DNA of 18,212 nucleotides from a virus. Lineage: Duplodnaviria > Heunggongvirae > Uroviricota > Caudoviricetes. How positions within the stretch are numbered: the first letter of the stretch is position 1; every line of letters begins with the position of its first letter. The notes below the pieces were generated by a model. It did not search any database and had not been told where the DNA came from. It saw only the letters and a list, made by a program, of their open reading frames with translations. The position numbers were made by a program, and so were the translations under genes. The stretch lies in the IMG/VR virus record IMGVR_UViG_2617271087_000009; one strand, written 5' to 3'. This document shows positions 1,015 to 18,212 of the stretch, piece by piece.

Positions 1015-1069
1015 CAGAAAACCCTCCGAGTGGTACTTTTTTTTTGCTACTACTAATCGCTTTTTTCGT

Positions 1070-1090
1070 GGTGGCTGAAATTTAGCCACC
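1070..1090. other. Perfect 7-bp stem / 7-nt loop hairpin (GGTGGCT-GAAATTT-AGCCACC) in the C-int intergenic region
   Basis: Inverted repeat read directly. No U-tract follows on either strand, so not a canonical intrinsic terminator; possibly a protein-binding or int-regulatory element. Confidence 0.3.
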
Positions 1091-1130
1091 AATAGTAGGC
1101 ACTTGTGATGAATATATTCACGATAAATTG

Positions 1131-1430: not shown

Positions 1431-1551
1431 AATTACTCCGATTGCGTAATTTCTTGCTGATAGTGTGAAATGTTGTGCTTCTGGAGTTATCCTTTTAGGC
1501 AATAATTAGCCATTAGGAGCCATTAGAAGCACTAAGGGAGAATCGTAGCAG
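1431..1551. promoter_or_regulatory. Lysis/lysogeny switch region (Pe/Pc promoters and operators expected); direct repeats AGCCATTAG at 1508-1516 and 1518-1526
   Basis: Intergenic region between divergent C and cox. In P2/186 the face-to-face promoters and repressor operators lie here. The two 9-bp direct repeats are read directly; I could not place -10/-35 elements confidently. Confidence 0.4.
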
Positions 1552-1827
1552 ATGAATAGACAGCTTGTAAGCGTGACTGATGCCGTGCCTTATCAGGAGT
1601 TTGCAAAACTCATTGGTAAAACTCCAAGAGCTGTAAGGGGCATGATTGAGAAAGGGAAATTACCAGTTATTGAGATTACTGACCCTCAGTCAGTATCGGG
1701 GCGTGCTGGTGAATATTGGGTATACCTTCCGGCATGGAATAACGGACTAAAACTGGCTTATGAAAGCCGTCCTAAAGAGATTCGTGACGGCTGGTTGATG
1801 TGGTTAGGTCTCGGTGAACCACGTTAA
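1552..1827 (+). CDS. cox: Cox (excisionase / early-promoter repressor), 91 aa
   Basis: 91-aa ORF, same length as P2 Cox; sequence AVPYQEFAKLIGK...GRAGEYWVYLPAWNNGLKLAYESRPKEIRDGWLMWLGLGEPR matches P2 Cox from memory. Confidence 0.9.
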   Translation: MNRQLVSVTDAVPYQEFAKLIGKTPRAVRGMIEKGKLPVIEITDPQSVSGRAGEYWVYLPAWNNGLKLAYESRPKEIRDGWLMWLGLGEPR

Positions 1828-1837
1828 GGAGAACCGT

Positions 1838-2008
1838 ATGAATGAGCCTCGTTGTATTGCTCAGTTATTGCGTAACGAAAGCCCCAGGGCGATTGACTTC
1901 ACCATCACCCACGGTAAGGGGCGTAAGGGAATCATTATCCGCACCAAAAAACAGAGTCCGTTAAAAAAGGCTCTGACCTTTCTGAAAAGCCGGAGGGTCT
2001 GGAAATGA
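1838..2008 (+). CDS. Small early hypothetical protein (P2 orf78 position)
   Basis: ATG at 1838 preceded by AAGGAG at 1826-1831; stop overlaps the B start (ATGA at 2005-2008). The ORF track's 1814 start is a GTG with no better RBS. Confidence 0.5.
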   Translation: MNEPRCIAQLLRNESPRAIDFTITHGKGRKGIIIRTKKQSPLKKALTFLKSRRVWK

Positions 2009-2505
2009 CAGTGATGACGCTCAATCTCGTTGAAAAACAGCCAGCAGCTATGCGCCGGATAATTGGTAAGCATCTGGCCGTCCCTCGCTGGCAGGAGACA
2101 TGCGATTATTATAATCAGATGATGGAACGCGAACGGCTAACGGTTTGCTTCCATGCGCAGTTAAAACAGCGTCACGCAACGATGCGTTTTGAAGAAATGA
2201 ACGACGTCGAACGTGAACGGCTGGTTTGTGCAATTGATGAACTGCGTGGGGCATTCTCAAAACGCCGTCAGGTCGGTGCAAGTGAGTATGCATATATTAG
2301 CTTTTTAACTGTCAGTCAGCGCCGTACTTTATTTATGCATGCCGGATTGACTGAAAAAGAATTCAACCAGCCATACTGGCGAATTAATGAAGAATCATGT
2401 TACTGGCGTGATGCCTTATTCCGTGCATTACGTGAATTATTCAGCCTGTTTGAGTATGCACCGACAATTCTGACGTCGGTAAAACCAGAGCAATATCTGC
2501 ATTAA
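2005..2505 (+). CDS. B: Replication protein B (166 aa)
   Basis: 166-aa ORF equal to P2 gpB length, in the conserved position after cox/orf78; start overlaps the upstream stop. Confidence 0.85.
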   Translation: MTVMTLNLVEKQPAAMRRIIGKHLAVPRWQETCDYYNQMMERERLTVCFHAQLKQRHATMRFEEMNDVERERLVCAIDELRGAFSKRRQVGASEYAYISFLTVSQRRTLFMHAGLTEKEFNQPYWRINEESCYWRDALFRALRELFSLFEYAPTILTSVKPEQYLH

Positions 2506-2568
2506 GTAATTAACCAGAGTTTTTAACGCACTTAATTGTGCGGGGCTTCTTTTTGCCTGGAGAAAGTC

Positions 2569-2793
2569 ATGCATACAGTTTCTGAAAATCAGTGCGGTAA
2601 ATACGCATTACTGCTGCAACAGGCCAGAACCGAAGCACAGGCCGACGCAGCGACGCGCTTTTCTTCTCATCTTGACGCCATGATTCGCCACATCACAAAG
2701 GCGGAGTTATCCCGCGTGGAGATAGTCGAGCTGCTCAGTCAGGAGTCGGAAAAATTTCACAATATCGGATTGTCTCGCGGGGAGGTGCTTTGA
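2569..2793 (+). CDS. Small early hypothetical protein (P2 orf80 position)
   Basis: ATG at 2569 with GGAGAAAG RBS at 2559-2566; the track's 2536 start is GTG. Stop overlaps the next start (TGATG at 2791-2795). Confidence 0.6.
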
Positions 2794-3095
2794 TGTCCTG
2801 TTCTCGTTCAGTTGTATTACTGAATAACGCCTTAAAAATCGCCGTTATGAAAAATGGCGATTTATCTCTTATTCAACTTGGTCTTGATAAAGAAAAACGC
2901 GAAATAACTGAGTCTGTTATCGCGATTTATCAGAACGAATTAAATCTCCTGTCTGATGTGGTCAATTTACTTGTTAAACGCGCTGTATTTCACAAGCAAA
3001 TCTCCTCCGTGGATGAACTGACGAAATTAACGACAGAAATTGCCAGCTATTGCGCTGATGAATTTAAAAAACTTAACGACAAAAGGAGCTGGTAA
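2793..3095 (+). CDS. Small early hypothetical protein (P2 orf81 position)
   Basis: ATG at 2793 with GGGGAGGTG RBS; translationally coupled to both neighbours (TGATG upstream, TAATG downstream). Confidence 0.6.
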   Translation: MSCSRSVVLLNNALKIAVMKNGDLSLIQLGLDKEKREITESVIAIYQNELNLLSDVVNLLVKRAVFHKQISSVDELTKLTTEIASYCADEFKKLNDKRSW

Positions 3096-3319
3096 TGCCG
3101 GACAACGTAGATTTTATTCAGGAACAACAGGCTGAATTACTGGAGCGCCAGATTAACGCGGCAAGGGTAAAGCATTGCGGTGTTTCTGCGCTGGTTTGCG
3201 AAGAGTGTGACGCGCCAATACCTGCTGCCCGTCGTGCGGCTTATCCGTCAGCCACGCGTTGTGTTTCCTGCCAGTCAGTCTTTGAAGCAAAAAACAAACA
3301 TTACCGGAGAACGGCATGA
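3095..3319 (+). CDS. TraR/DksA-type C4 zinc-finger protein (P2 orf82-like)
   Basis: 74 aa with C-x2-C ... C-x2-C (CEEC...CVSC), the four-cysteine arrangement of TraR/DksA-family phage proteins; AAAAGGAG RBS at 3081-3088. Confidence 0.75.
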   Translation: MPDNVDFIQEQQAELLERQINAARVKHCGVSALVCEECDAPIPAARRAAYPSATRCVSCQSVFEAKNKHYRRTA

Positions 3320-3597
3320 GTATTCGTATTGAAATTGGCGAGCGTTATGTCGTCACAAATGACCGTTTTCAGTTCATTTTGCAGGAGAGAAAGACCGCTG
3401 AAACCGGGAAGAATGCCGGTAAAGAGTGGCTGGATGTTGTCGGCTATTACCCCAAATTAAACCAGCTCGTTTCCGGTCTGATCCATCACGATATTTTGAG
3501 CGGTAACGCTGTCTCTTTTGAGGCGCTGAGCTCTCAGGTTGAGCAGCTCGGTCAGCAGTGTCTGACTGCGTTTCTCTGTGCGGGGAAATCTAAATGA
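3316..3597 (+). CDS. Small early hypothetical protein (P2 orf83 position)
   Basis: 93-aa ORF; ATG at 3316 overlaps the upstream stop (ATGA); GGAGA RBS at 3306-3310. Confidence 0.6.
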   Translation: MSIRIEIGERYVVTNDRFQFILQERKTAETGKNAGKEWLDVVGYYPKLNQLVSGLIHHDILSGNAVSFEALSSQVEQLGQQCLTAFLCAGKSK

Positions 3598-4602
3598 TAG
3601 TTGATACCCGCTGCCGAGCTGAAAGCTCTATCAATATTATTTCTGTTTCTGGCGGAAAGGATAGCCTTGCTCAATGGCTTGTTGGTATTGAAAGCGGTGT
3701 GCATTTTTTTGCCGGTTTTTGCAGACACCGGGCATGAGCATCCGCAGACAATGGAGTATCTCGATTATCTGGAGAACCGACTCGGGCCGGTTAAACGGGT
3801 TAAAGCTGACTTCTCCCGACAGATTGAAGGTAAGCGCAAGTTTATTGCTGAGAAATGGCCTGTTTCTCTGGTTGAAGAGTGCGGAATGTCTCCGGGGGAA
3901 GCGGCAGAGCGCATCAATTGTGCGCTGGAAATTCTCAAGCCTACTGGTATCCCATTTCTTGATTTGTGCATGTGGAAAGGGCGATTTCCTTCCACTAAAG
4001 CCAGATTTTGCACTTTTGACCTTAAACATGAGCCAGTACGTACTCAGGTCGTGTTACCTGCGCTTAATGAGTTTGATGAGGTAATTAGCTGGCAGGGGAT
4101 TCGCGCTCAGGAGTCTCCTGCGCGCGCGGGTCTGCCTGCCTGGGAAGAGGATGCGGACAATACGCCCGGGCTCCATGTATACCGTCCTATTCTGAACTGG
4201 ACGCATGAGGAGGTATTTGCATTTGCAAGACGTCATGGAATTAAACCTAATCCGTTATACCAGCAGGGATGCAGTCGTGTCGGTTGTATGCCCTGCATCC
4301 ACGCCAGAAAGTCTGAATTAGCTGAAATTTTTAGTCGCTGGCCGGAAGAGGTTAAGCGTGTTGCGGAATGGGAGCGACTTGTCGCCGCATGCTCCAGACG
4401 CGGAAATTCTACTTTCTTCCCGTCAACTCATGACCCGCGTCGTGCGGAACGCCGCATTGATATTATTACTGTCGATGCTTACGGAATTGAGTCTTATCGT
4501 GACTGGGCGATGACCACGCGTGGCGGGGCACAGTTTGATTTGCTGGCTTCGGTGAATGATAAGTCAGTTTGCAGTAGTGTCTATGCCGGTGTATGTGAAT
4601 GA
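3594..4602 (+). pseudogene. PAPS reductase / DndC-like PP-loop protein with Cys cluster, interrupted by a +1 frameshift in a T7 run (3704-3710); possibly a sequencing error
   Basis: Frame 0 from ATG 3594 (overlapping the orf83 stop) encodes MIVDTRCRAESSINIISVSGGKDSLAQWLVGIESGVHFF and stops at 3735-3737. Frame +1 continues FLPVFADTGHEHPQTMEY... to 4602. SGGKDS followed about 25 residues later by DTG...P.T is the PAPS-reductase family signature, but here it is split across frames. Removing one T from the T7 run restores one ORF of about 335 aa. C-terminal GCSRVGCMPC cysteine cluster. Confidence 0.7.
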
Positions 4603-6884
4603 GTCATTCTTTCCAGGAGCAATACACCTGCGTACCTCCGTCAGCATTTGCTGCAGGCACCGGTAAGGCGTTTACCGGTGCTTATGCATGGAACGCGCCA
4701 CGCGAGGCCGTCGGGCGCGAAAGACCCCTTACACGTGACGAGATGCGTCAGGTGCAAGGTGTTTTATCCACGATTAACCGCCTGCCTTACTTTTTGCGCT
4801 CGCTGTTTACTTCACGCTATGACTACATCCGGCGCAATAAAAGCCCGGTGCACGGGTTTTATTTCCTCACATCTACTTTTCAGCGTCGTTTATGGCCGCG
4901 CATTGAGCGCGTGAATCAGCGCCATGAAATGAACACCGACGCGTCGTTGCTATTTCTGGCAGAGCGTGACCACTATGCGCGCCTGCCTGGAATGAATGAC
5001 AAGGAGCTGAAAAAGTTTGCCGCCCGTATCTCATCGCAGCTTTTCATGATGTATGAGGAACTCTGCGATGCATGGGTTGATGCACATGGCGAAAAAGAAT
5101 CGCTGTTTACGGATGAGGCGCAGACTCACCTGTATGGTCATGTTGCTGGCGCTGCACGTGCTTTCAATATTTCCCCGCTCTACTGGAAAAAATACCGTAA
5201 AGGACAGATAACCACGAGGCAGGCATATTCTGCCATTGCCCGTCTGTTTAACGATGAGTGGTGGACTCATCAGCTTAAAGGCCAGCGTATGCGCTGGCAT
5301 GAGGCGTTACTGATTGCTGTCGGGGAGGTCAATAAAGACCGTTCTCCTTATGCCAGTAAACATGCCATTCGTGATGTGCGTGCGCGCCGCCAGGCAAATC
5401 TGGAGTTTCTTAAATCGTGTGACCTTGAAAACAGGGAAACCGGCGAACGCATCGACCTTATCAGTAAGGTGATGGGCAGTATTTCTAATCCTGAAATTCG
5501 CCGGATGGAGCTGATGAACACCATTGCCGGTATTGAGCGTTACGCCGCCGCAGAGGGTGATGTGGGGATGTTTATCACGCTGACCGCGCCGTCAAAGTAT
5601 CACCCGACACGTCAGGTCGGAAAAGGCGAAAGTAAAACCGTTCAGCTTAATCACGGCTGGAACGATGAGGCATTTAATCCAAAGGATGCGCAGCGTTATC
5701 TCTGCCGTATCTGGAGCCTGATGCGCACGGCATTCAAGGATAATGATTTACAGGTCTACGGTTTGCGAGTCGTCGAGCCACACCACGACGGAACGCCGCA
5801 CTGGCATATGATGCTTTTTTGTAATCCACGCCAGCGTAACCAGATTATTGAAATCATGCGTCGCTACGCGCTCAAAGAGGATGGCGACGAAAGAGGAGCT
5901 GCGCGAAACCGTTTTCAGGCAAAACACCTTAACCGGGGCGGTGCTGCAGGGTATATCGCGAAATACATCTCAAAAAACATCGATGGCTATGCACTGGATG
6001 GTCAGCTCGATAACGATACCGGCAGGCCGCTGAAAGACACTGCCGCGGCTGTTACCGCATGGGCGTCAACGTGGCGCATTCCGCAATTTAAAACGGTTGG
6101 CCTGCCGACAATGGGGGCTTACCGTGAACTACGCAAATTGCCTCGCGGCGTCAGCATTGCTGATGAGTTTGACGAGCGCGTCGAGGCTGCACGCGCCGCT
6201 GCAGACAGTGGTGATTTTGCGTTGTATATCAGCGCGCAGGGCGGGGCAAATGTCCCGCGCGATTGTCAGACTGTCAGGGTCGCCCGTAGCCCGTCGGATG
6301 ACGTTAACGAGTACGAGGAAGAAGTCGAGAGAGTGGTCGGCATTTACGCGCCGCATCTCGGCGCGCGTCATATTCATATCACCAGAACGACGGACTGGCG
6401 CATTGTTCCGAAAGTGCCGGTCGTTGAGCCTTTGACTTTAAAAAGCGGCATCGCCGCGCCTCGGAGTCCTGTCAATAACTGTGGAAAGCTCACCGGTGGT
6501 GATACTTCGTTACCGGCTCCCACACCTTCTGAGCACGCCGCAGCAGTGCTTAATCTGGTAGATGACGGTGTTATCGAATGGAATGACCCGGAGGTCGTGA
6601 GGGCGCTCAGAGGTGCATTAAAACACGGCCTGAGAAGACCAAACCGTCAGCAAAGAAACGGAAGCCCGTTAAAACCGCATGAAATAGCGCCATCGGCCAG
6701 ACTGACCCGGTCTGAACGATTGCAAATCACCCGTATCCGCGTTGACCTTGCTCAGAACGGTATCAGGCCGCAGCGATGGGAGCTTGAGGCGCTGGCGCGT
6801 GGCGCGACCGTAAATTATGACGGGAAAAAATTCACGTATCCGGTCGCTGATGAGTGGTCGGGATTCTGGCATCAATTTGAGTAA
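4599..6884 (+). CDS. A: Replication initiation protein A (rolling-circle HUH endonuclease), 761 aa
   Basis: 761 aa equals P2 gpA length; HUH-like motif (GTPHWHMMLF) and tyrosine-containing active-site region (GYIAKYISKNIDGY); start overlaps the upstream stop (ATGA). Confidence 0.9.
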   Translation: MSHSFQEQYTCVPPSAFAAGTGKAFTGAYAWNAPREAVGRERPLTRDEMRQVQGVLSTINRLPYFLRSLFTSRYDYIRRNKSPVHGFYFLTSTFQRRLWPRIERVNQRHEMNTDASLLFLAERDHYARLPGMNDKELKKFAARISSQLFMMYEELCDAWVDAHGEKESLFTDEAQTHLYGHVAGAARAFNISPLYWKKYRKGQITTRQAYSAIARLFNDEWWTHQLKGQRMRWHEALLIAVGEVNKDRSPYASKHAIRDVRARRQANLEFLKSCDLENRETGERIDLISKVMGSISNPEIRRMELMNTIAGIERYAAAEGDVGMFITLTAPSKYHPTRQVGKGESKTVQLNHGWNDEAFNPKDAQRYLCRIWSLMRTAFKDNDLQVYGLRVVEPHHDGTPHWHMMLFCNPRQRNQIIEIMRRYALKEDGDERGAARNRFQAKHLNRGGAAGYIAKYISKNIDGYALDGQLDNDTGRPLKDTAAAVTAWASTWRIPQFKTVGLPTMGAYRELRKLPRGVSIADEFDERVEAARAAADSGDFALYISAQGGANVPRDCQTVRVARSPSDDVNEYEEEVERVVGIYAPHLGARHIHITRTTDWRIVPKVPVVEPLTLKSGIAAPRSPVNNCGKLTGGDTSLPAPTPSEHAAAVLNLVDDGVIEWNDPEVVRALRGALKHGLRRPNRQQRNGSPLKPHEIAPSARLTRSERLQITRIRVDLAQNGIRPQRWELEALARGATVNYDGKKFTYPVADEWSGFWHQFE
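6456..6475 (+). other. Candidate origin / A-protein nick region inside the A coding sequence
   Basis: GCGCCTCGGAGTCCTGTCAA matches my recollection of the P2 ori sequence, which is known to lie within the 3' part of gene A. Recall-based, not computed. Confidence 0.4.
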
Positions 6885-6973
6885 GGATCTCATCTATACA
6901 GTATAAGTAGTTTTGACTGTAATTGATTGTTTTTTATATGGTTGCATGCATTAAATCTACGTCAATATCATTA

Positions 6974-6982
6974 TGTTATAAT
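6974..6982 (+). promoter_or_regulatory. Extended -10 promoter element (TGtTATAAT) upstream of the cargo operon
   Basis: TG-n-TATAAT read directly at 6974-6982, about 29 nt upstream of the ATG at 7011 with GGAGA RBS at 7001-7005; AT-rich context; no good -35. Confidence 0.45.
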
Positions 6983-7010
6983 GCATTACTTAAAAATGTT
7001 GGAGATAAAA

Positions 7011-7202
7011 ATGTTAAAGCCTGCAGATGTTGTTTGTTTGAAAAGCGGTGGATTTAAAATGACTGTATCTGACTCTACTGAAACTCATGCTAAATGTATT
7101 TGGCATGATAAAGAAGGAGTTTTGCACGAGGAGTCATTCTCCATTGATTTACTGGAAATAGCAGAGAGTAAAAGTGGTATGCTTTGTCGTCCACGTAAGT
7201 GA
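7011..7202 (+). CDS. Small protein (63 aa), YodC/DUF2158-like, first gene of the cargo island
   Basis: ATG at 7011 with GGAGA RBS. The pattern V.LKSGG.KMTV ... C.W.D ... F recalls the DUF2158 (YodC) small-protein family, from memory only. AT-rich codon usage unlike the flanking phage genes. Confidence 0.6.
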   Translation: MLKPADVVCLKSGGFKMTVSDSTETHAKCIWHDKEGVLHEESFSIDLLEIAESKSGMLCRPRK

Positions 7203-7229
7203 ATCATAATAAAATTCACGGGGGAAAGT

Positions 7230-7910
7230 ATGAAACAATACAGCGAATTAGAAAACAATGTTAAGAGATTCATTGTTGAGCATGAAAAAGGGATTTCTAT
7301 TGATGATATTCATCATAAGTTCCGGATGAAGGATGGTCAGAATCGCAAGATGGCAGATTATCTTATTGATAATAAAAAGATAATTTTGGAGATGAAAAGT
7401 CTTTTTTCTGACAGGGTCAAGAATGTCAATGATAAACTGAATGAGTTGGTTAAAACTGATAATTGGCTTGCAAAAAACTGGCATGGTGCTATTCATTTAG
7501 AAGAGTTGATAAAAAGACACCCAGACTCAAAGCGATTTAGAAATGATATAATGAACTTTGCTTATGAAAATATTAAAACAAAGATAGTTAAGGAAGCTAA
7601 TAAGCAAATAAATGCAACAAAGGATGTTTTGGATTTAAATGACTCGATTGGCGGGTTGATTTTGTTAAATGATAATGTCTTTTCACATGAGTCTAATTAT
7701 TTGTCAGATGAAATATTATATTTGCTAGGCACAAAGAGATATTCGAGTGTTGAGTTTGTGGTTTATATTGCAAAATTGATTGATAAACAGGTTGATGTTT
7801 GTGTGCTACTTGACAGTCAATCTAAAAATAAAAATTATATTGAATGGTATATGAATAATGTTTTTTTATTGAACTGGGCGTCTTTTAATAAATATGCAAT
7901 AAAGATGTAG
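7230..7910 (+). CDS. Hypothetical protein (226 aa), cargo gene of unknown function
   Basis: ATG at 7230 with GGGGGAAAG RBS, 27 nt after the upstream stop, so probably co-transcribed. K/N/E-rich, AT-rich; no motif I recognise, no predicted transmembrane segment. Confidence 0.7.
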   Translation: MKQYSELENNVKRFIVEHEKGISIDDIHHKFRMKDGQNRKMADYLIDNKKIILEMKSLFSDRVKNVNDKLNELVKTDNWLAKNWHGAIHLEELIKRHPDSKRFRNDIMNFAYENIKTKIVKEANKQINATKDVLDLNDSIGGLILLNDNVFSHESNYLSDEILYLLGTKRYSSVEFVVYIAKLIDKQVDVCVLLDSQSKNKNYIEWYMNNVFLLNWASFNKYAIKM

Positions 7911-8163
7911 TGGTGTGGATGGATATGAAATGAGTCAACCAAGATGCACCTTGGTCAGTAATCTCATGTGAGATACCACATATAACACCAAAAGTGTCAG
8001 GTTGATGGCCATTGTTCACCGTTTACAGCAGATTATGGTCAACGAAAATCTGACGCCTGACGAGCTGGTCGGGTGTGCCGAAATAGTCTGGGATAATTAC
8101 GGGCGGTTTAACTATATCGGTCAGTCCAGAGTTGCGCCACCACCACGCAGACGATAGAGAACG

Positions 8164-8197
8164 CCGCCAGTCGTGAAACTTGTTTTCAGGCTGGCGG
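8164..8197 (-). terminator. Possible weak intrinsic terminator for the 313-aa cargo gene
   Basis: CCGCCAG ... CTGGCGG 7-bp GC-rich stem with a long structured loop, about 33 nt downstream of the minus-strand stop, followed on the minus strand by CGUUCUCUAUCG (only moderately U-rich). Confidence 0.3.
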
Positions 8198-8229
8198 AGT
8201 TGAACAACGAGCGAAGTGAGGCGTTAGCA

Positions 8230-9171
8230 TTAAGTTAATTTTAATGAATGGTACTCTATCGAGCTGATTGTAGATGCGATATATTTACGATCATTTACAG
8301 AGAGTATTGCCGCTAGTAGACGACATACCAGAGCCTGCATTTGTAGCAATATATCGCTACCATATTGACAATCATTGATACTAGAGAAACCAAGCGGTTG
8401 CCCATTAAAAATGGCTTCATGAAAATTATCATTGCGTATAACTGAAACATTACATTCATCTGTTGCCCATGACGGGATTTTTACACCGTAATTTTCGCAC
8501 ATCCAATATACTCTATTTTGATGAGATGGTTTTTTCTCTTTAATGACTTTATCCCTTTCATCCCATGCTATAGCAAAACAGCAATCAAGAGCCATATAAA
8601 GATACTGGAATTTCTCAAAGGAAAGGTATAGTGGGTTATGTGACAGGAATAGGGAGTGTATCACCGCAGCTATTCTTTTAATGGAGCGATCATCTTTTTG
8701 TTTGTCTTTTATATAGTTAAGTGCTAGCTCTATTACTTCTTTTTCAGAGCATCCAACGAGAATAAAGTCGGTTAACTTAGTGGGCTTGATAGTGGTTGCA
8801 TCAAGAAAACCAGCGTCAGTGGTTGTCAATCTTATACCCTTGAAAAAAGAGAGGCACCACACAACAAAGTTGAGAGTTTCTAACGAGGATGTGTTTTTTA
8901 ATTTTAGTGTGTGCGTTTTGGGCATGCCGAATACTCGGTAACTATAAGGCATTGTGCATGTGTCACCATTAAGGTTATATACCTTTCGATTCCCAGGGTA
9001 TATCCAACCATTAACAACGTTTTTATCATTGTTAATACGTTCCACGTTCTCAATAAGACCGGGTAAAGTACGCAAAGAAAATTGTTCAGTCTCAATGTTA
9101 ACTTCTACTGGATAGTATCCAAACTCCGAAATAATCTCATTTGGTTGCTGTTCGTCAACTTCACCTTGCAT
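8230..9171 (-). CDS. Hypothetical protein (313 aa), cargo gene of unknown function
   Basis: ATG (reverse complement of 9169-9171) preceded by GGAGAAAG RBS; convergent with the 7011-7910 operon; AT-rich. It contains an R-x4-H motif (RNDNFH, residues about 246-251) reminiscent of HEPN Rx4-6H, which is weak evidence. Confidence 0.7.
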   Translation of the reverse strand: MQGEVDEQQPNEIISEFGYYPVEVNIETEQFSLRTLPGLIENVERINNDKNVVNGWIYPGNRKVYNLNGDTCTMPYSYRVFGMPKTHTLKLKNTSSLETLNFVVWCLSFFKGIRLTTTDAGFLDATTIKPTKLTDFILVGCSEKEVIELALNYIKDKQKDDRSIKRIAAVIHSLFLSHNPLYLSFEKFQYLYMALDCCFAIAWDERDKVIKEKKPSHQNRVYWMCENYGVKIPSWATDECNVSVIRNDNFHEAIFNGQPLGFSSINDCQYGSDILLQMQALVCRLLAAILSVNDRKYIASTISSIEYHSLKLT

Positions 9172-9409
9172 AACTTTCTCCGTTCAAAAACAGGCACGAT
9201 AATTCTCGTAAGCCTATCATGTTCGCAAAGTATCCATACCTGTGGATTTTGTAAATTTAAGTTGATTTGTCATTAAATAAGCCGTTGCATGCAACAAGTG
9301 AATGTTTTTGCATGCGTCGGGGATGTCCGTTCAGGCTGCGTGCGGTCAGGACTGGTGCGGATCCATAGTATCTATGCAACTGCATTAAAACCGCCCCATG
9401 AAGCGGGCG

Positions 9410-9428
9410 GGCGAGGCGGGGAAAGCAC
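9410..9428. other. cos: cos site (19-nt cohesive-end sequence GGCGAGGCGGGGAAAGCAC)
   Basis: Exact match to my recollection of the P2/P4 19-nt cohesive end, in the expected position downstream of Q and adjacent to the tin/old-equivalent locus. Confidence 0.55.
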
Positions 9429-9562
9429 TGCGCGCTGGCGGTGGTGCTGATTTTATTTTTTCAGCGTCTCAGCGCGTCGTGATGGCATTTAGTCGGCCTG
9501 CTGGGGCGTTGGTGTGTCTGCGGGGTGTTTTGTGCGGTGGTGAGGGCGTGATGACGGGATGT

Positions 9563-9584
9563 AAAAAAGCCGCCCGCAGGCGGC
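9563..9584 (-). terminator. Rho-independent terminator after Q
   Basis: Minus strand reads GCCGCC-UGCG-GGCGGC followed by UUUUUU, starting 5 nt after the Q stop codon. Confidence 0.65.
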
Positions 9585-9589
9585 GATGT

Positions 9590-10624
9590 TCAGCCGTTGT
9601 CAGTGTCAAGTGAGTAGTTTTTAAAGCGGATGACCTCCTGACCGAGCCAGTCGTTTATCTCGCGGATCCTGTCCTGTAACGGGATAAGCTCATTGCGGAC
9701 AAAGACCTTTGCCACTTTCTCAATATCACCCAGCGACCCGACGTTCTCCGGCTTGCCACCCATCAACTGAAAGGGGATGCGGTGCGCGTCCAGCAGGTCA
9801 GCGGCGCTGGCTTTTTTGATATTAAAAAAATCGTCCTTCGTCGCCACTTCACTGAGGGGGATAATTTTAATGCCGTCGGCTTTCCCCTGTGGGGCATAGA
9901 GAAACAGATTTTTAAAGTTATTGCGGCCTTTCGACTTCACCATGTTTTCGCGAAGCATTTCGATATCGTTGCGATCCTGCACGGCATCGGTGACGTACAT
10001 GATGTATCCAGCATGTGCGCCATTTTCGTAATACTTGCGGCGGAACAGCGTGGCCGACTCATTCAGCCAGGCAGAGTTAAGGGCGCTGAGATATTCCGGC
10101 AGGCCGTACAGCTCCTGATTAATATCCGGCTCCAGCAGGTGAAACACGGAGCCGGACGCGAAGGCTGTCGGCTCGTTGAAGGACGGCACCCACCAGTAAA
10201 CATCCTCCTCCACGCCACGGCGGGTATATTTTGCCGGTGAGGTTTCCAGCCTGATAACCTTACCGGTGGTGCTGTAACGCTTTTCCAGAAACGCATTACC
10301 GAACACCAGAAAATCCAGCACAAAGCGGCTGAAATCCTGCTGGGAAAGCCACGGGTGCGGAATAAACGTTGAAGCCAGAATATTACGTTTGACGTAAATC
10401 GGTGAGCTGTGATGTACGGCAGCACGCAGGCTTTTTGCCAGACCGGTAAAGCTGACCGGTGGCTCATACCATCTGCCGTTACTGATGCACTCGACGTAAT
10501 CCAGAATGTCACGGCGGTCGAGTACCGGCACCGGCTCACCAAAGGTGAATGCCTCCATTTTCGGGGCGCTGGCGGTCATTGTTTTCACCGCAGGTTGCGG
10601 TGTTTTCCCTTTTTTCTTGCTCAT
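9590..10624 (-). CDS. Q: Portal protein Q (344 aa)
   Basis: 344 aa equals P2 gpQ length; start ATG overlaps the P stop (ATGA); adjacent to terminase. Confidence 0.9.
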   Translation of the reverse strand: MSKKKGKTPQPAVKTMTASAPKMEAFTFGEPVPVLDRRDILDYVECISNGRWYEPPVSFTGLAKSLRAAVHHSSPIYVKRNILASTFIPHPWLSQQDFSRFVLDFLVFGNAFLEKRYSTTGKVIRLETSPAKYTRRGVEEDVYWWVPSFNEPTAFASGSVFHLLEPDINQELYGLPEYLSALNSAWLNESATLFRRKYYENGAHAGYIMYVTDAVQDRNDIEMLRENMVKSKGRNNFKNLFLYAPQGKADGIKIIPLSEVATKDDFFNIKKASAADLLDAHRIPFQLMGGKPENVGSLGDIEKVAKVFVRNELIPLQDRIREINDWLGQEVIRFKNYSLDTDNG

Positions 10625-12395
10625 CAGTAAAACTCCAGAATGGTGGATGTCAGCGGGGTGCTGATACCGGCGGTGAGTGGCTCATTTAACAGGGCGTGCA
10701 TGGTCGCCCAGGCGAGGTCGGCGTGGCTGGCTTCCTCGCTGCGACTGGCCTCATAGGTGGCGCTGCGTCCGCTGCTGGTCATGGTCTTGCGGATAGCCAT
10801 AAACGAGCTGGTGATGTCGGTGGCGCTGACGTCATATTCCAGACAGCCACGGCGGATAACGTCTTTTGCCTTGAGCACCATTGCGGTTTTCATTTCCGGT
10901 GTGTAGCGGATATCGCGCGCGGCGGGATAGAACGAGCGCACGAGCTGGAACACGCCGACACCGAGGCCGGTGGCATCAATACCGATGTATTCGACGTTAT
11001 ATTTTTCGGTGAGTTTGCGGATGGATTCAGCCTGGGTGGCAAAGTCCATGCCTTTCCACTGGTGACGCTCAAGTATCCTGAATTTGCCACCGGCCACCAC
11101 CGGCGGTGCCAGCACCACGCATCCGGCGCTGTCGCCACGGTGTGACGGGTCGTAACCAATCCATACCGGGCGGGAGCCGAACGGATTGGCGGCAAACGGT
11201 GCATAGTCTTCCCATTCTTCCAGCGTGTCGACCATGCAGCGTTGCAGCTCCTCGAACGGGAACACCGATGCCTTGTCGTCAACAAATTCACACATGAACA
11301 GGTTTTTAAAATCGTCGGCGCTGTTTTCGCGTTTGAGCTGCTCAATGTCGAACAGTGTGCAGCCACCTTTCAGGGCGTCCTCAATGGTGACAATCTGCCG
11401 CCACTGGCCGTCCGCACAGAGAAGCCCACCGGCAAGGGCGTTATGACTGACGTCGATTTCCACACGTTCGGCGGCGCTGGCGCGTCCCCGGTTGAACAGT
11501 TCACCCGACCAGAACGGGTAGCGTCGTGCGCCAGTGTGGACGGGGTGGAGAAATAGGTCGAGCGCAGGTGACTCTGTGAGGCCATACCTGATGCCACCTT
11601 ACGCAGAACCTGAAAATTTGGGATCCAGAAAATCTCGTCGACGTACAGGTCACCGTTATGGCTCTGTGCGGTGTTGGAGTTGGTGCCGAGAAAAATCAGT
11701 TTTGCGCCGTTATTGCCCAGGACAATCGGGTCACCGGTCAGGTCAACGTCAACCAGACGGGCAAAGGCGATGATGTATTCACGGAACACATACGCCTGCG
11801 TTTTACTGGCCGACAGAAAAATCTGGTTATGACCGGTTTTCAGGGCGCGCAGCAGCGCCTCGCGGGAAAAATAAAATGTCGCGCCAATCTGGCGGGATTT
11901 CAGGATATCGCGGATGCGGTGCTCAAGCCCGGCGCGATACCAGTGCAACTGATAGTCGAAAGACTGCTCAAAGAAAATCTGCTCCAGCTTTTCGATAGCC
12001 TCGTCACTGAAAAAATTCTTTTTCGGTTTGCGCCGCCCGCCTTTGTTGCGGTTAGCGACGTTCGGATTAAGGTCTGCCTCGTTGCCGGTCTGGCTGTAGC
12101 GGTTTACCCGTGCCAGTCGTTCAATCTGGCGTCCGAGCAGGTCAATTTCCTTGAAGTCACCGCCGGTTTTCTGCGGTTTGATAATGAGCTGGGTCAGCCG
12201 CGCTTCCAGACTCATTTCGACACGGCTGATGGGGGCAACGCTGTCCCAGCCGTCGCGCTGTTTCCAGCTCTGCACCGTCGGGCGTTTCATCTGCAACATG
12301 GCGGCAATCTGCGGCACGGAAAACCCCTGCCAGTACAGCAGCGCCGCCTGACGACGCGGGTCGTGTAAAAGAGTGGTGTCTGTGGTGATGGTCAT
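10624..12395 (-). pseudogene. P: Terminase large (ATPase) subunit P, split by an apparent 1-nt deletion near 11515-11530; possibly a sequencing error
   Basis: N-terminal part from ATG 12393-12395 (MTITTDTTLLHDPRR...) runs in one frame to a stop at 11370. The C-terminal part (…YPFWSGELFNRGRASAAERVEIDVSHNALAGG…) is in another frame that is open from 11598 to the stop at 10624-10626. The coding span is 1769 nt, one short of the 1770 needed for the 590-aa P2 gpP. Sensible protein sequence switches frames at about AHDA|YPFW. Confidence 0.8.
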
Positions 12396-12568
12396 GAATA
12401 CCTCGCCGTGATGAATACACGGCAAGGCTACTGAGTCGCGCCCCGCGATTCGCTAAGGTGCTGTTGTGTCAGTGATAAGCCATCCGGGACTGATGGCGGA
12501 GGATGCGCATCGTCGGGAAACTGATGCCGACATGTGACTCCTCTAATCACTATTCAGGACTCCTGACA
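12396..12568. promoter_or_regulatory. Divergent late-promoter region (P_P leftward, P_O rightward), expected Ogr-dependent
   Basis: Intergenic region between divergent P and O, as in P2. A TGT-N12-CAC element (12533-12550) partly resembles the TGT-N12-ACA late-promoter upstream motif. Not resolved further. Confidence 0.35.
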
Positions 12569-13423
12569 ATGGCAAAAAAAGTCTCAAAATTCTTTCGTAT
12601 CGGCGTTGAGGGTGACACCTGTGACGGGCGTGTCATCAGTGCGCAGGATATTCAGGAAATGGCCGAAACCTTTGACCCGCGAGTCTATGGTTGCCGCATT
12701 AACCTGGAACATCTGCGCGGCATCCTGCCTGACGGTATTTTTAAGCGTTATGGCGATGTGGTCGAACTGAAGGCCGAAAAGATTGACGATGATTCGGCGC
12801 TGAAAGGCAAATGGGCGCTGTTTGCGAAAATCACCCCGACCGATGACCTTATCGCGATGAACAAGGCCGCGCAGAAGGTCTACACCTCAATGGAAATTCA
12901 GCCGAACTTTGCCAACACCGGCAAATGTTATCTGGTGGGGCTGGCCGTCACCGATGACCCGGCAAGCCTCGGCACGGAATACCTGGAATTCTGCCGCACG
13001 GCAAAACACAACCCTCTGAACCGCTTCAAATTAAGCCCTGAAAACCTGATTTCAGTGGCAACGCCCGTTGAGCTGGAATTTGAAGACCTGCCTGAAACCG
13101 TGTTCACCGCCCTGACCGAAAAGGTGAAATCCATTTTTGGCCGCAAACAGGCCAGCGATGACGCCCGTCTGAATGACGTGCATGAAGCGGTGACCGCTGT
13201 TGCTGAACATGTGCAGGAAAAACTGAGCGCCACTGAGCAGCGCCTCGCTGAGATGGAAACCGCCTTTTCCGCACTTAAGCAGGCGGTGACTGACAGGGCG
13301 GATGAAACCAGCCAGGCATTCACCCGCCTGAAAAACAGTCTCGACCACACCGAAAGTCTGACCCAGCAGCGCCGCAGCAAGGCCACCGGTGGTGGCGGTG
13401 ACGGCCTGATGACGAACTGCTGA
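12569..13423 (+). CDS. O: Capsid scaffold protein O (284 aa)
   Basis: Internal ATG at 12569 (MAKKVSKFFRIGVEGDTCDGRV...) gives 284 aa, the P2 gpO length; coiled-coil-like C-terminus. Confidence 0.9.
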   Translation: MAKKVSKFFRIGVEGDTCDGRVISAQDIQEMAETFDPRVYGCRINLEHLRGILPDGIFKRYGDVVELKAEKIDDDSALKGKWALFAKITPTDDLIAMNKAAQKVYTSMEIQPNFANTGKCYLVGLAVTDDPASLGTEYLEFCRTAKHNPLNRFKLSPENLISVATPVELEFEDLPETVFTALTEKVKSIFGRKQASDDARLNDVHEAVTAVAEHVQEKLSATEQRLAEMETAFSALKQAVTDRADETSQAFTRLKNSLDHTESLTQQRRSKATGGGGDGLMTNC

Positions 13424-13481
13424 CCGGCGTCAGTCAGTCCGGGAAAACCTTCACGATTAACCCTTAATTTCAGGAAAAACT

Positions 13482-14555
13482 ATGCGCCAGGAAACCCGCT
13501 TTAAATTTAATGCTTACCTGTCCCGTGTTGCCGAACTGAACGGCATTGATGCCGGTGATGTGTCGAAAAAATTCACTGTTGAACCGTCGGTCACCCAGAC
13601 CCTGATGAACACCATGCAGGAGTCCTCTGACTTTCTGACCCGCATCAACATTGTGCCGGTCAGCGAAATGAAAGGGGAAAAAATTGGTATTGGTGTCACC
13701 GGCTCCATCGCCAGCACCACCGACACCGCCGGTGGCACCGAGCGTCAGCCGAAGGACTTCTCGAAGCTGGCGTCAAACAAGTACGAATGCGACCAGATTA
13801 ACTTCGATTTTTATATCCGCTACAAAACGCTGGACCTGTGGGCGCGTTATCAGGATTTCCAGCTCCGTATCCGTAACGCCATTATCAAACGCCAGTCCCT
13901 TGATTTCATCATGGCCGGTTTTAACGGCGTGAAGCGTGCCGAAACCTCTGACCGCAGCAGCAATCCGATGCTGCAGGATGTGGCGGTCGGCTGGCTGCAG
14001 AAATACCGCAATGAAGCCCCGGCTCGCGTGATGAGCAAGGTCACTGACGAGGAAGGCAGCACCACCTCTGAGGTCATCCGCGTGGGTAAGGGCGGTGATT
14101 ATGCCAGCCTCGATGCACTGGTGATGGATGCGACCAACAACCTGATTGAGCCGTGGTATCAGGAAGACCCTGACCTTGTGGTGATTGTGGGGCGTCAGCT
14201 ACTGGCGGACAAGTATTTCCCCATCGTCAACAGGGAGCAGGATAACAGCGAAATGCTGGCTGCTGACGTCATCATCAGCCAGAAACGCATCGGTAACCTG
14301 CCAGCGGTACGCGTCCCGTACTTCCCGGCGGATGCGATGCTCATCACGAAGCTGGAAAACCTGTCTATCTACTACATGGATGACAGCCATCGCCGCGTGA
14401 TTGTGGAAAACCCGAAACTCGACCGCGTGGAGAACTACGAGTCAATGAACATTGATTACGTGGTGGAAGACTACGCCGCCGGTTGTCTGGTGGAAAAAAT
14501 CAAGGTCGGTGATTTCTCCACACCGGCTAAGGCGACCGCAGAGCCGGGAGCGTAA
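13482..14555 (+). CDS. N: Major capsid protein N (357 aa)
   Basis: 357 aa equals P2 gpN length; conserved position after O. Confidence 0.9.
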   Translation: MRQETRFKFNAYLSRVAELNGIDAGDVSKKFTVEPSVTQTLMNTMQESSDFLTRINIVPVSEMKGEKIGIGVTGSIASTTDTAGGTERQPKDFSKLASNKYECDQINFDFYIRYKTLDLWARYQDFQLRIRNAIIKRQSLDFIMAGFNGVKRAETSDRSSNPMLQDVAVGWLQKYRNEAPARVMSKVTDEEGSTTSEVIRVGKGGDYASLDALVMDATNNLIEPWYQEDPDLVVIVGRQLLADKYFPIVNREQDNSEMLAADVIISQKRIGNLPAVRVPYFPADAMLITKLENLSIYYMDDSHRRVIVENPKLDRVENYESMNIDYVVEDYAAGCLVEKIKVGDFSTPAKATAEPGA

Positions 14556-14558
14556 CCG

Positions 14559-15302
14559 ATGACGAGTCCCGCACAGCGCCACATGATGCGGGTCTCGGCA
14601 GCGATGACCGCGCAGCGGGAAGCCGCCCCGCTGCGACATGCAACTGTCTATGAGCAGATGCTGGTCAAGCTGGCCGCAGACCAGCGCACACTGAAAGCGA
14701 TTTATTCAAAAGAGCTTAAGGCCGCGAAAAAGCGCGAACTGCTGCCGTTCTGGTTGCCGTGGGTGAACGGTGTGCTGGAGCAGGGCAAAGGTGCACAGGA
14801 TGACATTCTGATGACGGTCATGCTGTGGCGTCTGGATACCGGCGATATTGCCGGTGCGCTGGAGATTGCCCGTTATGCCCTGAAGTACGGTCTGACCATG
14901 CCGGGTAAACACCGCCGCACCCCGCCGTACATGTTCACCGAGGAGGTCGCACTCGCGGCCATGCGTGCCCACGCTGCCGGTGAATCTGTGGATATCCGCC
15001 TGCTGACGGAGACCCTTGAACTGACCGCCACGGCTGACATGCCTGATGAAGTGCGCGCAAAGCTGCACAAAATCACCGGTCTGTTTCTGCGTGACGCTGG
15101 TGATGCCGCCGGTGCGCTGGCTCACCTGCAACGTGCGACACAGCTCGACTGTCAGGCAGGCGTCAAAAAAGAGATTGAACGACTGGAGCGGGAGCTGAAA
15201 CCGAAGCCGGAGCCGCAGCCCAAAGCGGTCACCCGCGCCCCGCGTAAGACCCGGAGCGTGACACCGGCAAAACGTGGACGCCCGAAAAAGAAAGCCAGTT
15301 AA
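14559..15302 (+). CDS. M: Terminase small (endonuclease) subunit M (247 aa)
   Basis: 247 aa equals P2 gpM length; basic C-terminal tail (RKTRSVTPAKRGRPKKKAS). Confidence 0.9.
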   Translation: MTSPAQRHMMRVSAAMTAQREAAPLRHATVYEQMLVKLAADQRTLKAIYSKELKAAKKRELLPFWLPWVNGVLEQGKGAQDDILMTVMLWRLDTGDIAGALEIARYALKYGLTMPGKHRRTPPYMFTEEVALAAMRAHAAGESVDIRLLTETLELTATADMPDEVRAKLHKITGLFLRDAGDAAGALAHLQRATQLDCQAGVKKEIERLERELKPKPEPQPKAVTRAPRKTRSVTPAKRGRPKKKAS

Positions 15303-15401
15303 CAACCGAATGCGCCCCGCGCCAGGGCGGCACGCCGGTCAGTGAGGGTGAATCACCTGACACTGCACCGGCGTCCACCGCCCGACTTTTCAGAGGTAGT
15401 C

Positions 15402-15911
15402 ATGATGACGCTGATTATTCCGCGAAAGGAGGCTCCCGTGTCCGGTGAGGGTACGGTGGTCATCCCGCAACCGGCAGGCGACGAGCCGGTGATTAAAAAC
15501 ACGTTCTTTTTTCCCGATATCGACCCGAAGCGCGTCCGGGAACGTATGCGCCTTGAGCAGACCGTCGCCCCCGCCCGTCTGCGTGAGGCCATCAAGTCAG
15601 GCATGGCGGAGACGAATGCGGAGCTGTACGAGTACCGCGAACAGAAAATTGCCGCCGGTTTTACGCGTCTGGCGGACGTTCCGGCGGACGACATCGACGG
15701 TGAAAGCATCAAAGTTTTTTACTACGAGCGCGCCGTGTGTGCGATGGCGACCGCGTCGCTTTATGAGCGTTATCGCGGCGTGGATGCCAGTGCGAAAGGC
15801 GACAAGAAGGCCGACAGCATTGACAGCACCATTGATGAACTGTGGCGGGATATGCGCTGGGCGGTGGCGCGTATCCAGGACAAGCCGCGCTGCATCGTGA
15901 GTCAAATCTGA
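15402..15911 (+). CDS. L: Capsid completion protein L (169 aa)
   Basis: ATG at 15402 (MMTLIIPRKEAP...) gives 169 aa, the P2 gpL length; AGAGG RBS at 15392-15396. Confidence 0.85.
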   Translation: MMTLIIPRKEAPVSGEGTVVIPQPAGDEPVIKNTFFFPDIDPKRVRERMRLEQTVAPARLREAIKSGMAETNAELYEYREQKIAAGFTRLADVPADDIDGESIKVFYYERAVCAMATASLYERYRGVDASAKGDKKADSIDSTIDELWRDMRWAVARIQDKPRCIVSQI

Positions 15912-16114
15912 TGAAGACCTTTGCGCTACAGGGTGACACGCTCGACGCCATTTGTGTCCGGTATTACGGGCGCACTGAGGGCGTGGTTGAGACCGTGCTC
16001 GCCGCAAATCCGGGACTGGCTGAACTGGGTGCGGTGCTGCCACACGGCACCGCCGTCGAACTGCCCGACGTTCAGACCGCGCCCGTGGCTGAAACTGTCA
16101 ATCTGTGGGAGTAA
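15911..16114 (+). CDS. X: Tail protein X (67 aa)
   Basis: MKTFALQGDTLDAICVRYYGRTEGVVETVLAANPGL... is 67 aa, the P2 gpX length; start overlaps the L stop (TGATGA). Confidence 0.85.
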   Translation: MKTFALQGDTLDAICVRYYGRTEGVVETVLAANPGLAELGAVLPHGTAVELPDVQTAPVAETVNLWE

Positions 16115-16117
16115 CGC

Positions 16118-16411
16118 ATGACAGCAGAAGAAAAAAGCGTCCTGTCGCTTTTCATGATTGGGGTGCTGATTGTTGTCGGCAAGGTGCTTGCCGGTGGTGA
16201 ACCCATCACCCCGCGTCTGTTTATCGGGCGCATGTTGCTCGGCGGTTTTGTCTCGATGGTTGCCGGTGTTGTTCTGGTGCAGTTTCCTGACCTGTCACTG
16301 CCTGCGGTGTGCGGCATCGGTTCCATGCTGGGTATCGCCGGTTATCAGGTGATTGAGATTGCCATTCAGCGCCGCTTTAAGGCAGGGGGAAACCGTAATG
16401 CCGGTAATTAA
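16118..16411 (+). CDS. Y: Holin Y
   Basis: 97-aa hydrophobic protein with transmembrane-like stretches (LSLFMIGVLIVVGKVLAGG; FVSMVAGVVLVQF) and a charged C-terminus; GGGAG RBS; first gene of the lysis cassette. Confidence 0.85.
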   Translation: MTAEEKSVLSLFMIGVLIVVGKVLAGGEPITPRLFIGRMLLGGFVSMVAGVVLVQFPDLSLPAVCGIGSMLGIAGYQVIEIAIQRRFKAGGNRNAGN

Positions 16412-16895
16412 CACGCATCAGAATATCGCCGCCTTTCTCGACATGCTGGCCGTGTCCGAAGGGACGGCGAATCATCCGCTGACGAAAAACCGGGGCTATG
16501 ACGTGATAGTCACCGGACTGGACGGAAAGCCGGAAATTTTCACCGACTACAGTGACCACCCGTTCGCGCATGGCCGACCGGCGAAGGTGTTTAACCGTCG
16601 CGGTGAAAAATCCACGGCCTCCGGTCGCTATCAGCAGCTTTACCTGTTCTGGCCGCACTACCGCAAACAGCTTGCCCTGCCGGATTTCAGTCCGTTGTCA
16701 CAGGACAGGCTCGCCATTCAGTTGATCCGCGAACGCGGTGCACTGGATGACATCCGGGCGGGACGCATTGAGCGCGCCATTTCACGCTGTCGCAATATCT
16801 GGGCGTCCCTGCCGGGTGCCGGTTACGGTCAGCGTGAGCATTCACTGGAAAAACTGGTCACCGTCTGGCGTACCGCCGGCGGCGTACCGGCTTAA
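16398..16895 (+). CDS. K: Endolysin K (165 aa)
   Basis: ATG at 16398 (MPVINTHQNIAAFLDMLAVSEGT...) gives 165 aa, the P2 gpK length; AGGGGGA RBS; overlaps the Y 3' end. Confidence 0.85.
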   Translation: MPVINTHQNIAAFLDMLAVSEGTANHPLTKNRGYDVIVTGLDGKPEIFTDYSDHPFAHGRPAKVFNRRGEKSTASGRYQQLYLFWPHYRKQLALPDFSPLSQDRLAIQLIRERGALDDIRAGRIERAISRCRNIWASLPGAGYGQREHSLEKLVTVWRTAGGVPA

Positions 16896-16909
16896 ACGGA
16901 GTAAACACC

Positions 16910-17335
16910 ATGAAGAAATTATCCCTTTCACTGATGCTGAACGTGTCGCTGGCGCTGATGCTGGCACTGTCCCTGATTTACCCGCAGAGCGTGGCCGTCA
17001 GTTTTGTCGCCACCTGGGCGATTCTGGCGACGGTTATCTGTGTGGTTGCCGGTGGTGTCGGCGTGTATGCCACGGAGTATGTGCTGGAACGCTACGGGCG
17101 GGAGCTGCCGCCGGAATCGCTGGCCGTGAAGATTGTCACGTCGCTGTTTTTGCAGCCGGTGCCGTGGCGCAGACGGGCGGCGGCTCTGGTGGTGATGGTG
17201 GCGACGTTTATCTCGCTGGTCGCTGCCGGGTGGATTTTTACTGCGCTGATTTACCTCGTGGCGTCGGTGTTCTTCCGGCTGATACGTACGGCCTGCCGTC
17301 AGCGTTTTGAGGGGCGGGAACCATGTCAAAGCTGA
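16910..17335 (+). CDS. lysA: LysA (141 aa), membrane protein modulating lysis timing
   Basis: 141-aa multi-TM hydrophobic protein in the P2 lysA position; GGAG RBS. Confidence 0.8.
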   Translation: MKKLSLSLMLNVSLALMLALSLIYPQSVAVSFVATWAILATVICVVAGGVGVYATEYVLERYGRELPPESLAVKIVTSLFLQPVPWRRRAAALVVMVATFISLVAAGWIFTALIYLVASVFFRLIRTACRQRFEGREPCQS

Positions 17336-17748
17336 TGATTGTACTGGTTGTGTTGTTATCGCTGGCGGTGGCGGGGCTGTTTCTGGTGAAACATAAAAAT
17401 GCCAGCCTGCGCGCCTCGCTGGACAGGGCGAACAACGTCGCCAGCGGGCAGCAGACGACTATCACCATGCTGAAAAATCAGCTTCATGTTGCCCTCACCA
17501 GAGCAGACAAAAACGAGCTGGCGCAGGTGGTACTGCGTCAGGAACTGGAGAACGCCGCGAAGCGTGAAGCACAGCGCGAGAAAACCATCACGAGGTTACT
17601 CAATGAAAACGAAGATTTTCGCCGCTGGTACGGCGCTGACCTGCCTGATGTTGTGCGCCGGTTGCACCAGCGTCCGGCCTGCACCGACGCCAGTGATTGT
17701 CGCCAACGCCTGCCCGAAAGTGAGCCTTTGCCCGATGCCGGGCAGTGA
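17323..17748 (+). CDS. lysB: LysB (141 aa), Rz-like i-spanin
   Basis: N-terminal TM segment (MIVLVVLLSLAVAGLFLV) followed by a charged helical periplasmic domain; overlaps the lysA 3' end. Confidence 0.8.
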   Translation: MSKLMIVLVVLLSLAVAGLFLVKHKNASLRASLDRANNVASGQQTTITMLKNQLHVALTRADKNELAQVVLRQELENAAKREAQREKTITRLLNENEDFRRWYGADLPDVVRRLHQRPACTDASDCRQRLPESEPLPDAGQ

Positions 17749-17875
17749 CCCGCAGACGAACGGCGATTTAAGTGCTGATATCCGGCAGCTTGAGAACGCG
17801 CTGGCACGCTGTGCCAGCCAGGTAAAAATGATTAAACACTGTCAGGACGAAAACGATGCTTGCGTATTACCGTGA
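17603..17875 (+). CDS. lysC: LysC (90 aa), Rz1-like o-spanin lipoprotein, overlapping lysB in the +1 frame
   Basis: ATG at 17603 with GAGGT RBS; signal peptide plus lipobox (LMLCAGC); Pro-rich mature region; begins inside lysB and extends past it. Confidence 0.7.
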   Translation: MKTKIFAAGTALTCLMLCAGCTSVRPAPTPVIVANACPKVSLCPMPGSDPQTNGDLSADIRQLENALARCASQVKMIKHCQDENDACVLP

Positions 17876-18212
17876 AGGAGATCGGTGAGTAACATCGATG
17901 GAGATCGGTTCGTGTCACTTTCACAGAACCGTTTTTAAATTACCTTCACTGATCTCCTTCGGTCAACGGAGATTGTATTTTCCGCATTGATTCTCCTTTA
18001 AGTTCGATCTTGATACTGCCATGAACCAGTCGATCTAGGATGGCATCCGCATGTGTGGAGTCTCCGATCATTTTGTACCAGTTTTCCACCGGCAACTGGC
18101 TCACTACGATGATTGAGCCTCGTTGGTACATCAGATCCACTATTTCCAGCAGGTCGCTACGCTGTTCTGATGAGAGAGGTTCCAGCCCCCAGTCATCCAG
18201 AAGCAGCAGATC
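17876..18212 (-). mobile_element. IS21-family insertion sequence, right end; continues beyond the window
   Basis: Contains the istB 3' end. The 70 bp between the lysC stop and the istB stop carries repeated motifs (GGAGATCGGT at 17877-17886 and 17900-17909, and an inverted GGAGATCAG copy at about 17947-17958), typical of multi-repeat IS21 termini. The exact boundary is not determined. Confidence 0.65.
17946..18212 (-). CDS. istB: IstB (IS21-family transposition helper ATPase), C-terminal part; N-terminus off-window
   Basis: Minus-strand translation from the window edge: DLLLLDDWGLEPLSSEQRSDLLEIVDLMYQRGSIIVVSQLPVENWYKMIGDSTHADAILDRLVHGSIKIELKGESMRK... This carries the Walker B (hhhhDD) region and conserved C-terminus of IstB. 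The track's 64-aa ORF is only the tail. Confidence 0.8.
   Translation of the reverse strand, partial: DLLLLDDWGLEPLSSEQRSDLLEIVDLMYQRGSIIVVSQLPVENWYKMIGDSTHADAILDRLVHGSIKIELKGESMRKIQSPLTEGDQ

Follow-up and report, generated by a model that had tools for sequence, protein, structure and literature searches.

The window analysed here, the whole 18,212-nt stretch of DNA, carries the late genes of a P2-like prophage and ends in the DNA of an insertion sequence shortly behind the lysis genes. This raises the question of where exactly the phage gives way to the mobile element, and of what has become of lysC, of the tail gene R that should follow it, and of the late operon as a whole. In P2, the late operon that runs from the O promoter to S has R and S as its last genes, both of which are needed for tail completion. 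The gene order of the P2 late operon, O-N-M-L-X-Y-K-lysA-lysB-lysC-R-S, is alike in the window prophage, and the P2 match covering positions 15900–17860 of the window is 97.9% identical. However, whereas the P2 operon is uninterrupted, that of the window prophage is broken after nucleotide 5 of R.

We placed the phage/IS joint between positions 17860 and 17861. Positions 1–17860 align in one piece, with 4 differences, to a P2-like prophage of ST131-type E. coli that is carried by strains such as 4/0 and Ecol_656. Homology stops at 17860 in all intact relatives, and the same holds for 134 of 134 phage records with a match, P2 at 97.9% among them. In a three-way alignment of the window, an intact prophage and an independent copy of the element ISEc12, the switch falls after GATGCT. 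The element reads TGCGTATTACCGTGAAGGAGATCGG at its start at 17861, and the independent copy, which sits in an unrelated flank, has sequence in common with the window from TGCGTATTACCG onward. Because the alignment switches at 17860/17861, the element starts 15 nt to the left of position 17876, where the first-pass annotation had put it, right after the lysC stop codon. The joint lies 5 nt into R and 33 nt ahead of the native lysC stop, and it is the right (istB-proximal) end of ISEc12 that faces the lysis genes. The features on both sides of the joint are the following:

17323–17748, plus strand: lysB (Rz-like i-spanin), intact, a 141-aa ORF upstream of the insertion.
17603–17875, plus strand: chimeric lysC (Rz1-like o-spanin), codons 1–86 native, last 4 codons and TGA from the IS.
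17856–17860, plus strand: first 5 nt of R (ATGCT), the last phage sequence and predicted 5-bp target-site duplication (17856 corresponds to position 3957 of the intact prophage locus L001).
17861–18212, minus strand: right-end 352 nt of the 2581-bp ISEc12, with istA and istB on the minus strand; cut by the contig end.
17861–17945, minus strand: non-coding right end (IRR region) with terminal TGCGTATT..., from the alignment and the clustered motif.
17946–18212, minus strand: 3′ end of istB, which encodes an AAA+ helper ATPase (the final 88 of 248 codons and the stop codon), from PF01695 and NF038214.

The lysis gene next to the joint did not escape the insertion. Downstream of lysA (16910–17335 in the ORF list), lysB is identical to the lysB of ST131-type prophages; the exact protein occurs on many contigs, and all contigs obtained when LysB was looked up were long and had an intact R. 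The lysC ORF overlaps lysB in the +1 frame, ends at 17875 and encodes the lipoprotein LysC (MKTKIFAAGTALTCLMLCAGC...); under PGAP practice, its start would be 17648. Native LysC comprises 96 aa and ends in ...HCQDENDA-QTRQPAQGAD, whereas the version in the window has 90 aa and ends in ...HCQDENDA-CVLP. Thus, the last 10 codons were swapped for 4 IS-encoded codons (CVLP) and an IS-encoded stop codon at 17873–17875, while native lysC, as seen in the intact prophage L001, reaches the equivalent of 17893, 18 nt further. The stop codon of P2 lysC is inside R, in another reading frame (PMC3091744), and in the intact relatives the lysC stop likewise lies inside R; the native C-terminus with this stop is absent in the window. 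Since its stop codon and last four codons are IS sequence, lysC is truncated and not intact. The lysis cassette Y-K-lysA-lysB-lysC had initially been described as intact, which does not hold for lysC or for Y, the latter being altered by a 1-nt deletion at 16380. The accompanying suspicion that the insertion may have trimmed the 3′ end of lysC was well founded, as QTRQPAQGAD is replaced by CVLP. Judged by profile matches, the conserved domain of LysC is untouched by the insertion: positions 1–69 of 69 of PF23793 (LysC) are matched by residues 16–84 in both the native and the window versions, NF038368 (P2_Rz1) matches the window LysC over profile positions 1–82 of 85 with 124 bits, and the protein has a lipoprotein signal with a lipobox cysteine (MKTKIFAAGTALTCLMLCAG followed by C).

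The IS21-family element itself is ISEc12, with positions 17861–18212 as its visible, istB-proximal (right) end. The IS part of the window is identical to four full-length ISEc12 copies at 352 of 352 positions, with 0 mismatches, and the stretch 17876–18212 was found at 100% identity in more than 1,400 (1,556 counted) of 5,426 complete E. coli genomes. PGAP annotates the matched copies as "IS21-like element ISEc12 family helper ATPase IstB", and the name ISEc12 as used here rests on PGAP. Carrier genomes among the complete E. coli genomes have the element at a median of 3 places and at up to 14; moreover, 729 plasmid records match the ISEc12 stretch of the window. Full-length ISEc12 in other P2-like prophages is 2581 bp long and has the ends TGCGTATTACCG... 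and ...GAAAATACGCA, its termini running from TGCGTATT... on the right to ...AATACGCA at the other end. It encodes IstA (513 aa; NF033546, transpos_IS21) and IstB (248 aa; NF038214), both matching NCBIfam IS21 equivalog models, and istA was present in 14 of 14 full copies examined elsewhere. Of the 5′-TG...CA-3′ termini only one end is inside the window, the terminal TG of the right end being located at 17861; the 16-nt terminal arms of full ISEc12 copies are 81% complementary.

The description of an IS21-family right end with repeated motifs agrees with this 352-nt identity. GGAGATC has 3 occurrences in the 18.2-kb window, at 17877–17883 and 17900–17906 on the plus strand and at 17951–17957 on the minus strand, and in one full ISEc12 copy (L002) the terminal inverted repeat and GGAGATC-type internal repeats pair between both ends. 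The two direct repeats read GGAGATCGG, as had been stated, at 17877–17885 and 17900–17908, and, by analogy with IS21, they are presumed to be IstA binding sites. Likewise, istB does read inward on the minus strand to the window edge: from its stop codon at 17946–17948 the ORF is open for 88 codons. This fragment matches PF01695 (IstB_IS21) over profile positions 155–234 of 238 (E=1.3e-24) and NF038214 (IS21_help_AAA) with E=3.9e-29. The latter match is below the whole-protein cut-off for the sole reason that the gene is truncated; full-length istB copies, identical in DNA to the part in the window, reach 270 bits with NF038214 at a cut-off of 200. In comparison with PGAP-annotated ISEc12, the element is alike in the C-terminus of IstB, the TG terminus, the GGAGATC end repeats and the 352-nt identity, and it differs from known copies in its insertion site only (R codon 2, in the lysC/R overlap). 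ISEc12 also interrupts tssM in ST131 clade C (PMC10711316).

The source contig, CBWH010000002.1 of assembly GCA_000529975.1 (320,873 bp), extends only 2 nt beyond the window and stops within istB; in reverse complement, its locus is identical to window positions 1370–18212. It is the break of the draft contig in this multicopy repeat that terminates the window, whose end is therefore a contig break and no biological boundary. Indications of what may lie beyond come from 14 complete ISEc12 copies in P2-like prophages. In twelve of the 14, a target duplication borders the element and the interrupted gene or flank continues behind it; the duplication measures 5 bp in 10 of these 12 and apparently 7 bp in the other 2; one duplicated copy sits inside R itself. 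A 5-bp duplication by ISEc12 has also been published for tssM of ST131 (PMC10711316). No obvious target consensus was recognized among the 12 duplications. By analogy with the 14 copies, displacement of R seems likelier than its removal and, given a real junction, a simple insertion that duplicated ATGCT and left the R ORF restored appears probable. The predicted right-junction pattern, allowing for a variable duplication length, had 0 matches in metagenome contigs and species-representative genomes. The two ISEc12 copies without target duplication, L035 4528–7108 and L036 4414–6994, are followed by an IS91 transposase pseudogene and by an inverted tail-fibre assembly gene, respectively; these flanks indicate IS-associated deletion or inversion of prophage DNA.

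Contrary to the idea that the IS had replaced the start of R, the ATG of this gene is still present at 17856–17858 and the interruption follows nucleotide 5; the start codon was retained because the insertion happened inside the lysC/R overlap. No intact R ORF follows lysC in the window, where only ATGCT remains of a gene that encodes 155 aa in intact relatives (PF06891, E=1.7e-44). That the late operon is cut between the lysis genes and R/S was correctly recognized at first sight, as ISEc12 lies precisely there in the P2 gene order. We propose that a copy of ISEc12, with its DDE transposase (istA) and AAA+ helper (istB), transposed into the P2-like prophage of an ST131-type E. coli. If the insertion was simple and duplicated the 5 bp ATGCT, the sequence at the far junction would consist of ...AATACGCA, ATGCT and CAAACCC in direct succession, or in longer form GAAAATACGCA-ATGCT-CAAACCCGACAGCC. 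The IRL end ...AATACGCA would then be followed by the R sequence ATGCTCAAACCCGAC, and the string predicted for the source genome in this case is GAAAATACGCAATGCTCAAACCCGACAGCC. At the far end the R ORF would be whole again, without its native AGGA ribosome-binding site, and it would lie 2.6 kb from the late promoter, behind antisense IS DNA.

From this arrangement we infer a polar effect on R and S. Both genes would be under-expressed and the prophage would be defective for infectious particles, while the capsid and lysis genes upstream would stay under normal control. On the plus strand inside the IS there are 6 terminator-like hairpins vs 2.2±1.5 in shuffled sequences, two of them at 17957–17984, all of which are consensus matches only. 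No sigma-70-like promoter directed outward was found at the end of the IS in the window. This prophage probably cannot complete its tails, which is nothing unusual for prophages.

We regard it as very likely that ISEc12 inserted into the P2-like prophage at R, probably by a simple insertion with duplication of ATGCT, as a result of which R and S would be under-expressed. Events of this kind, strain-specific and involving a well-known IS, are ordinary. The junction might also be real and the IS mark a rearrangement or deletion by which R, S and possibly more were removed or inverted, either through recombination with another ISEc12 copy or through an IS-mediated adjacent deletion. Partners for recombination exist, given the copy numbers of the carrier genomes (median 3, up to 14 places), and the two copies L035 and L036 exemplify elements without duplication that have unrelated or inverted DNA next to them; furthermore, the far side lies beyond the contig end. 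Nevertheless, such a course appears unlikely to us, as 12 of the 14 comparable copies are simple insertions and the window itself has no sign of a rearrangement.

Far less probable still is an assembly artefact, with the joint produced at a chimeric contig end and the prophage actually uninterrupted. It is true that the contig ends inside a repeat, that three single-base indels in short single-base runs have the pattern of sequencing error, and that the junction was in no other genome searched: an 80-nt junction query of the 5,426 complete E. coli genomes returned no record covering it, the exact left-junction pattern had 0 matches in species-representative genomes, viral contigs and JGI metagenome contigs, and the chimeric LysC protein, looked up with three alternative starts, was not on record in any form. 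Absent from these collections, the junction therefore rests on one draft assembly with error-type indels. However, the joint coincides precisely with the terminal TG of the IS, which is the signature of transposition, whereas mis-joins occur within repeats and not at their exact ends; in addition, strain-specific ISEc12 insertions in P2-like prophages are common. Hardly any credence can be given to an IS that begins at 17876, directly behind a complete lysC, and takes the place of the beginning of R. Although 17875 is indeed the last position of the lysC ORF and 17877 the first of the leading GGAGATCGG repeat, the intact relatives diverge after 17860 and not after 17875, native lysC is 18 nt longer at this end and extends to the equivalent of 17893, the segment 17861–17875 is common to ISEc12 copies in unrelated flanks, and the R ATG survives. 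The three-way alignment, together with the comparison of full copies, refutes a start at 17876. With ISEc12 inserted at R, the IS boundary belongs at 17861 in the annotation, lysC is C-terminally altered, and R is interrupted after nucleotide 5.

Independent ISEc12 insertions in P2-like late genes were seen in N, L/X, R, S and the S–V spacer, in both orientations (L002, L013–L015, L029–L038). The capsid gene N is hit in S88 and MS7163, S in the P2-like prophages of APEC E19025, OHT76-1 and VE-V10-F, and R in GN04171 (NZ_CP095520), at a nucleotide position different from that in the window. These prophages share with the window the element, the prophage family and the disruption of late genes, with both orientations represented. 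Among the insertions examined, the one in the window is the only one that also truncates lysC.

As a side test of insertion preference, we counted, among the 5,426 complete E. coli genomes, those with an ISEc12 end within about 1.15 kb downstream of a 961-nt anchor. The lysA–lysC anchor yielded 7 genomes with 4 distinct sites in the same orientation as in the window and 3 genomes with 3 distinct sites, one of them inside R, in the opposite orientation. In the same orientation, 6 genomes with 3 sites in the capsid gene N were found with the O anchor, and 6 genomes with 4 sites with the M/L anchor, which covers L and X. R/S as a special hotspot was dismissed, since the O and M/L anchors gave counts similar to those of lysA–lysC, and so was an orientation bias of ISEc12 in view of the three opposite-orientation insertions. 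Chromosomal control anchors were chosen from non-essential DNA present in nearly all 5,426 genomes; the intervals yegS to gatR/gatD (5,423 genomes) and gatD to gatC (5,195) had 0 and 0 ISEc12 insertions. Taken together, P2-like prophages look enriched for ISEc12 in this test, which is uncontrolled for phylogeny, other prophage types and purifying selection. Whether ISEc12 preferentially inserts into P2-like prophage DNA, with the window as one more instance, is doubtful. If true, the preference would mean either that IstB/IstA select such targets or that disrupted P2-like prophages are favoured by selection, as in a selective sink.

The combination of the IS insertion with a frameshift in the terminase gene P had been taken to suggest a degenerating prophage. 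Compared with the closest complete genome (NZ_CP023849), the window differs at four positions only:

1037: one T more in a T8 run, just past the start of the integrase gene.
7462: single SNP.
11520: missing G (GG to G) in terminase gene P (minus strand, 10624–12395), which is thereby split.
16380: missing G (GGG to GG) in holin gene Y (16118–16411).

The deletions at 11520 and 16380 separate the window from every other relative examined. P is split into fragments of 341 and about 279 aa, and the protein of the N-terminal fragment was found on one contig only among indexed assemblies, namely CBWH010000002.1. The C-terminus of holin Y changes from GRGKP to AGGNRNAGN, each followed by the stop, giving 97 aa instead of 93. 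The 28 blocks (assembly groups) in which this 97-aa form recurs include prophages of unrelated background, often from assemblies in which many genes are split; this suggests either a recurrent error at the single-base run or a hypermutable site. As the three indels, which lie within 17.9 kb, are all in short single-base runs, sequencing error fits at least as well as decay, and the P frameshift may be one such error. The ISEc12 insertion is the only robust inactivating lesion. The case for a degenerating prophage, which rests on the P frameshift, is weak.

Three further observations concern other parts of the window. The 3′ end of the integrase gene falls on position 1. At about 3593–4602, a gene of the PAPS reductase family is annotated as "frameshifted" in NZ_CP023849; the window is identical to that genome there and is therefore in the same frameshifted state, the longest ORF in this region having 333 aa and a TTG start. 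Finally, two cargo ORFs are located in the variable region between the replication gene A and the portal gene Q, at 7230–7910 (plus strand, 226 aa) and at 8230–9171 (minus strand, 313 aa). Searches of these ORFs against Pfam and PADLOC gave no match. Related prophages have AAA_13/AAA_21, reverse-transcriptase, HEPN or GmrSD-type genes at the same position, and the two cargo ORFs could therefore be uncharacterised candidate defence genes.
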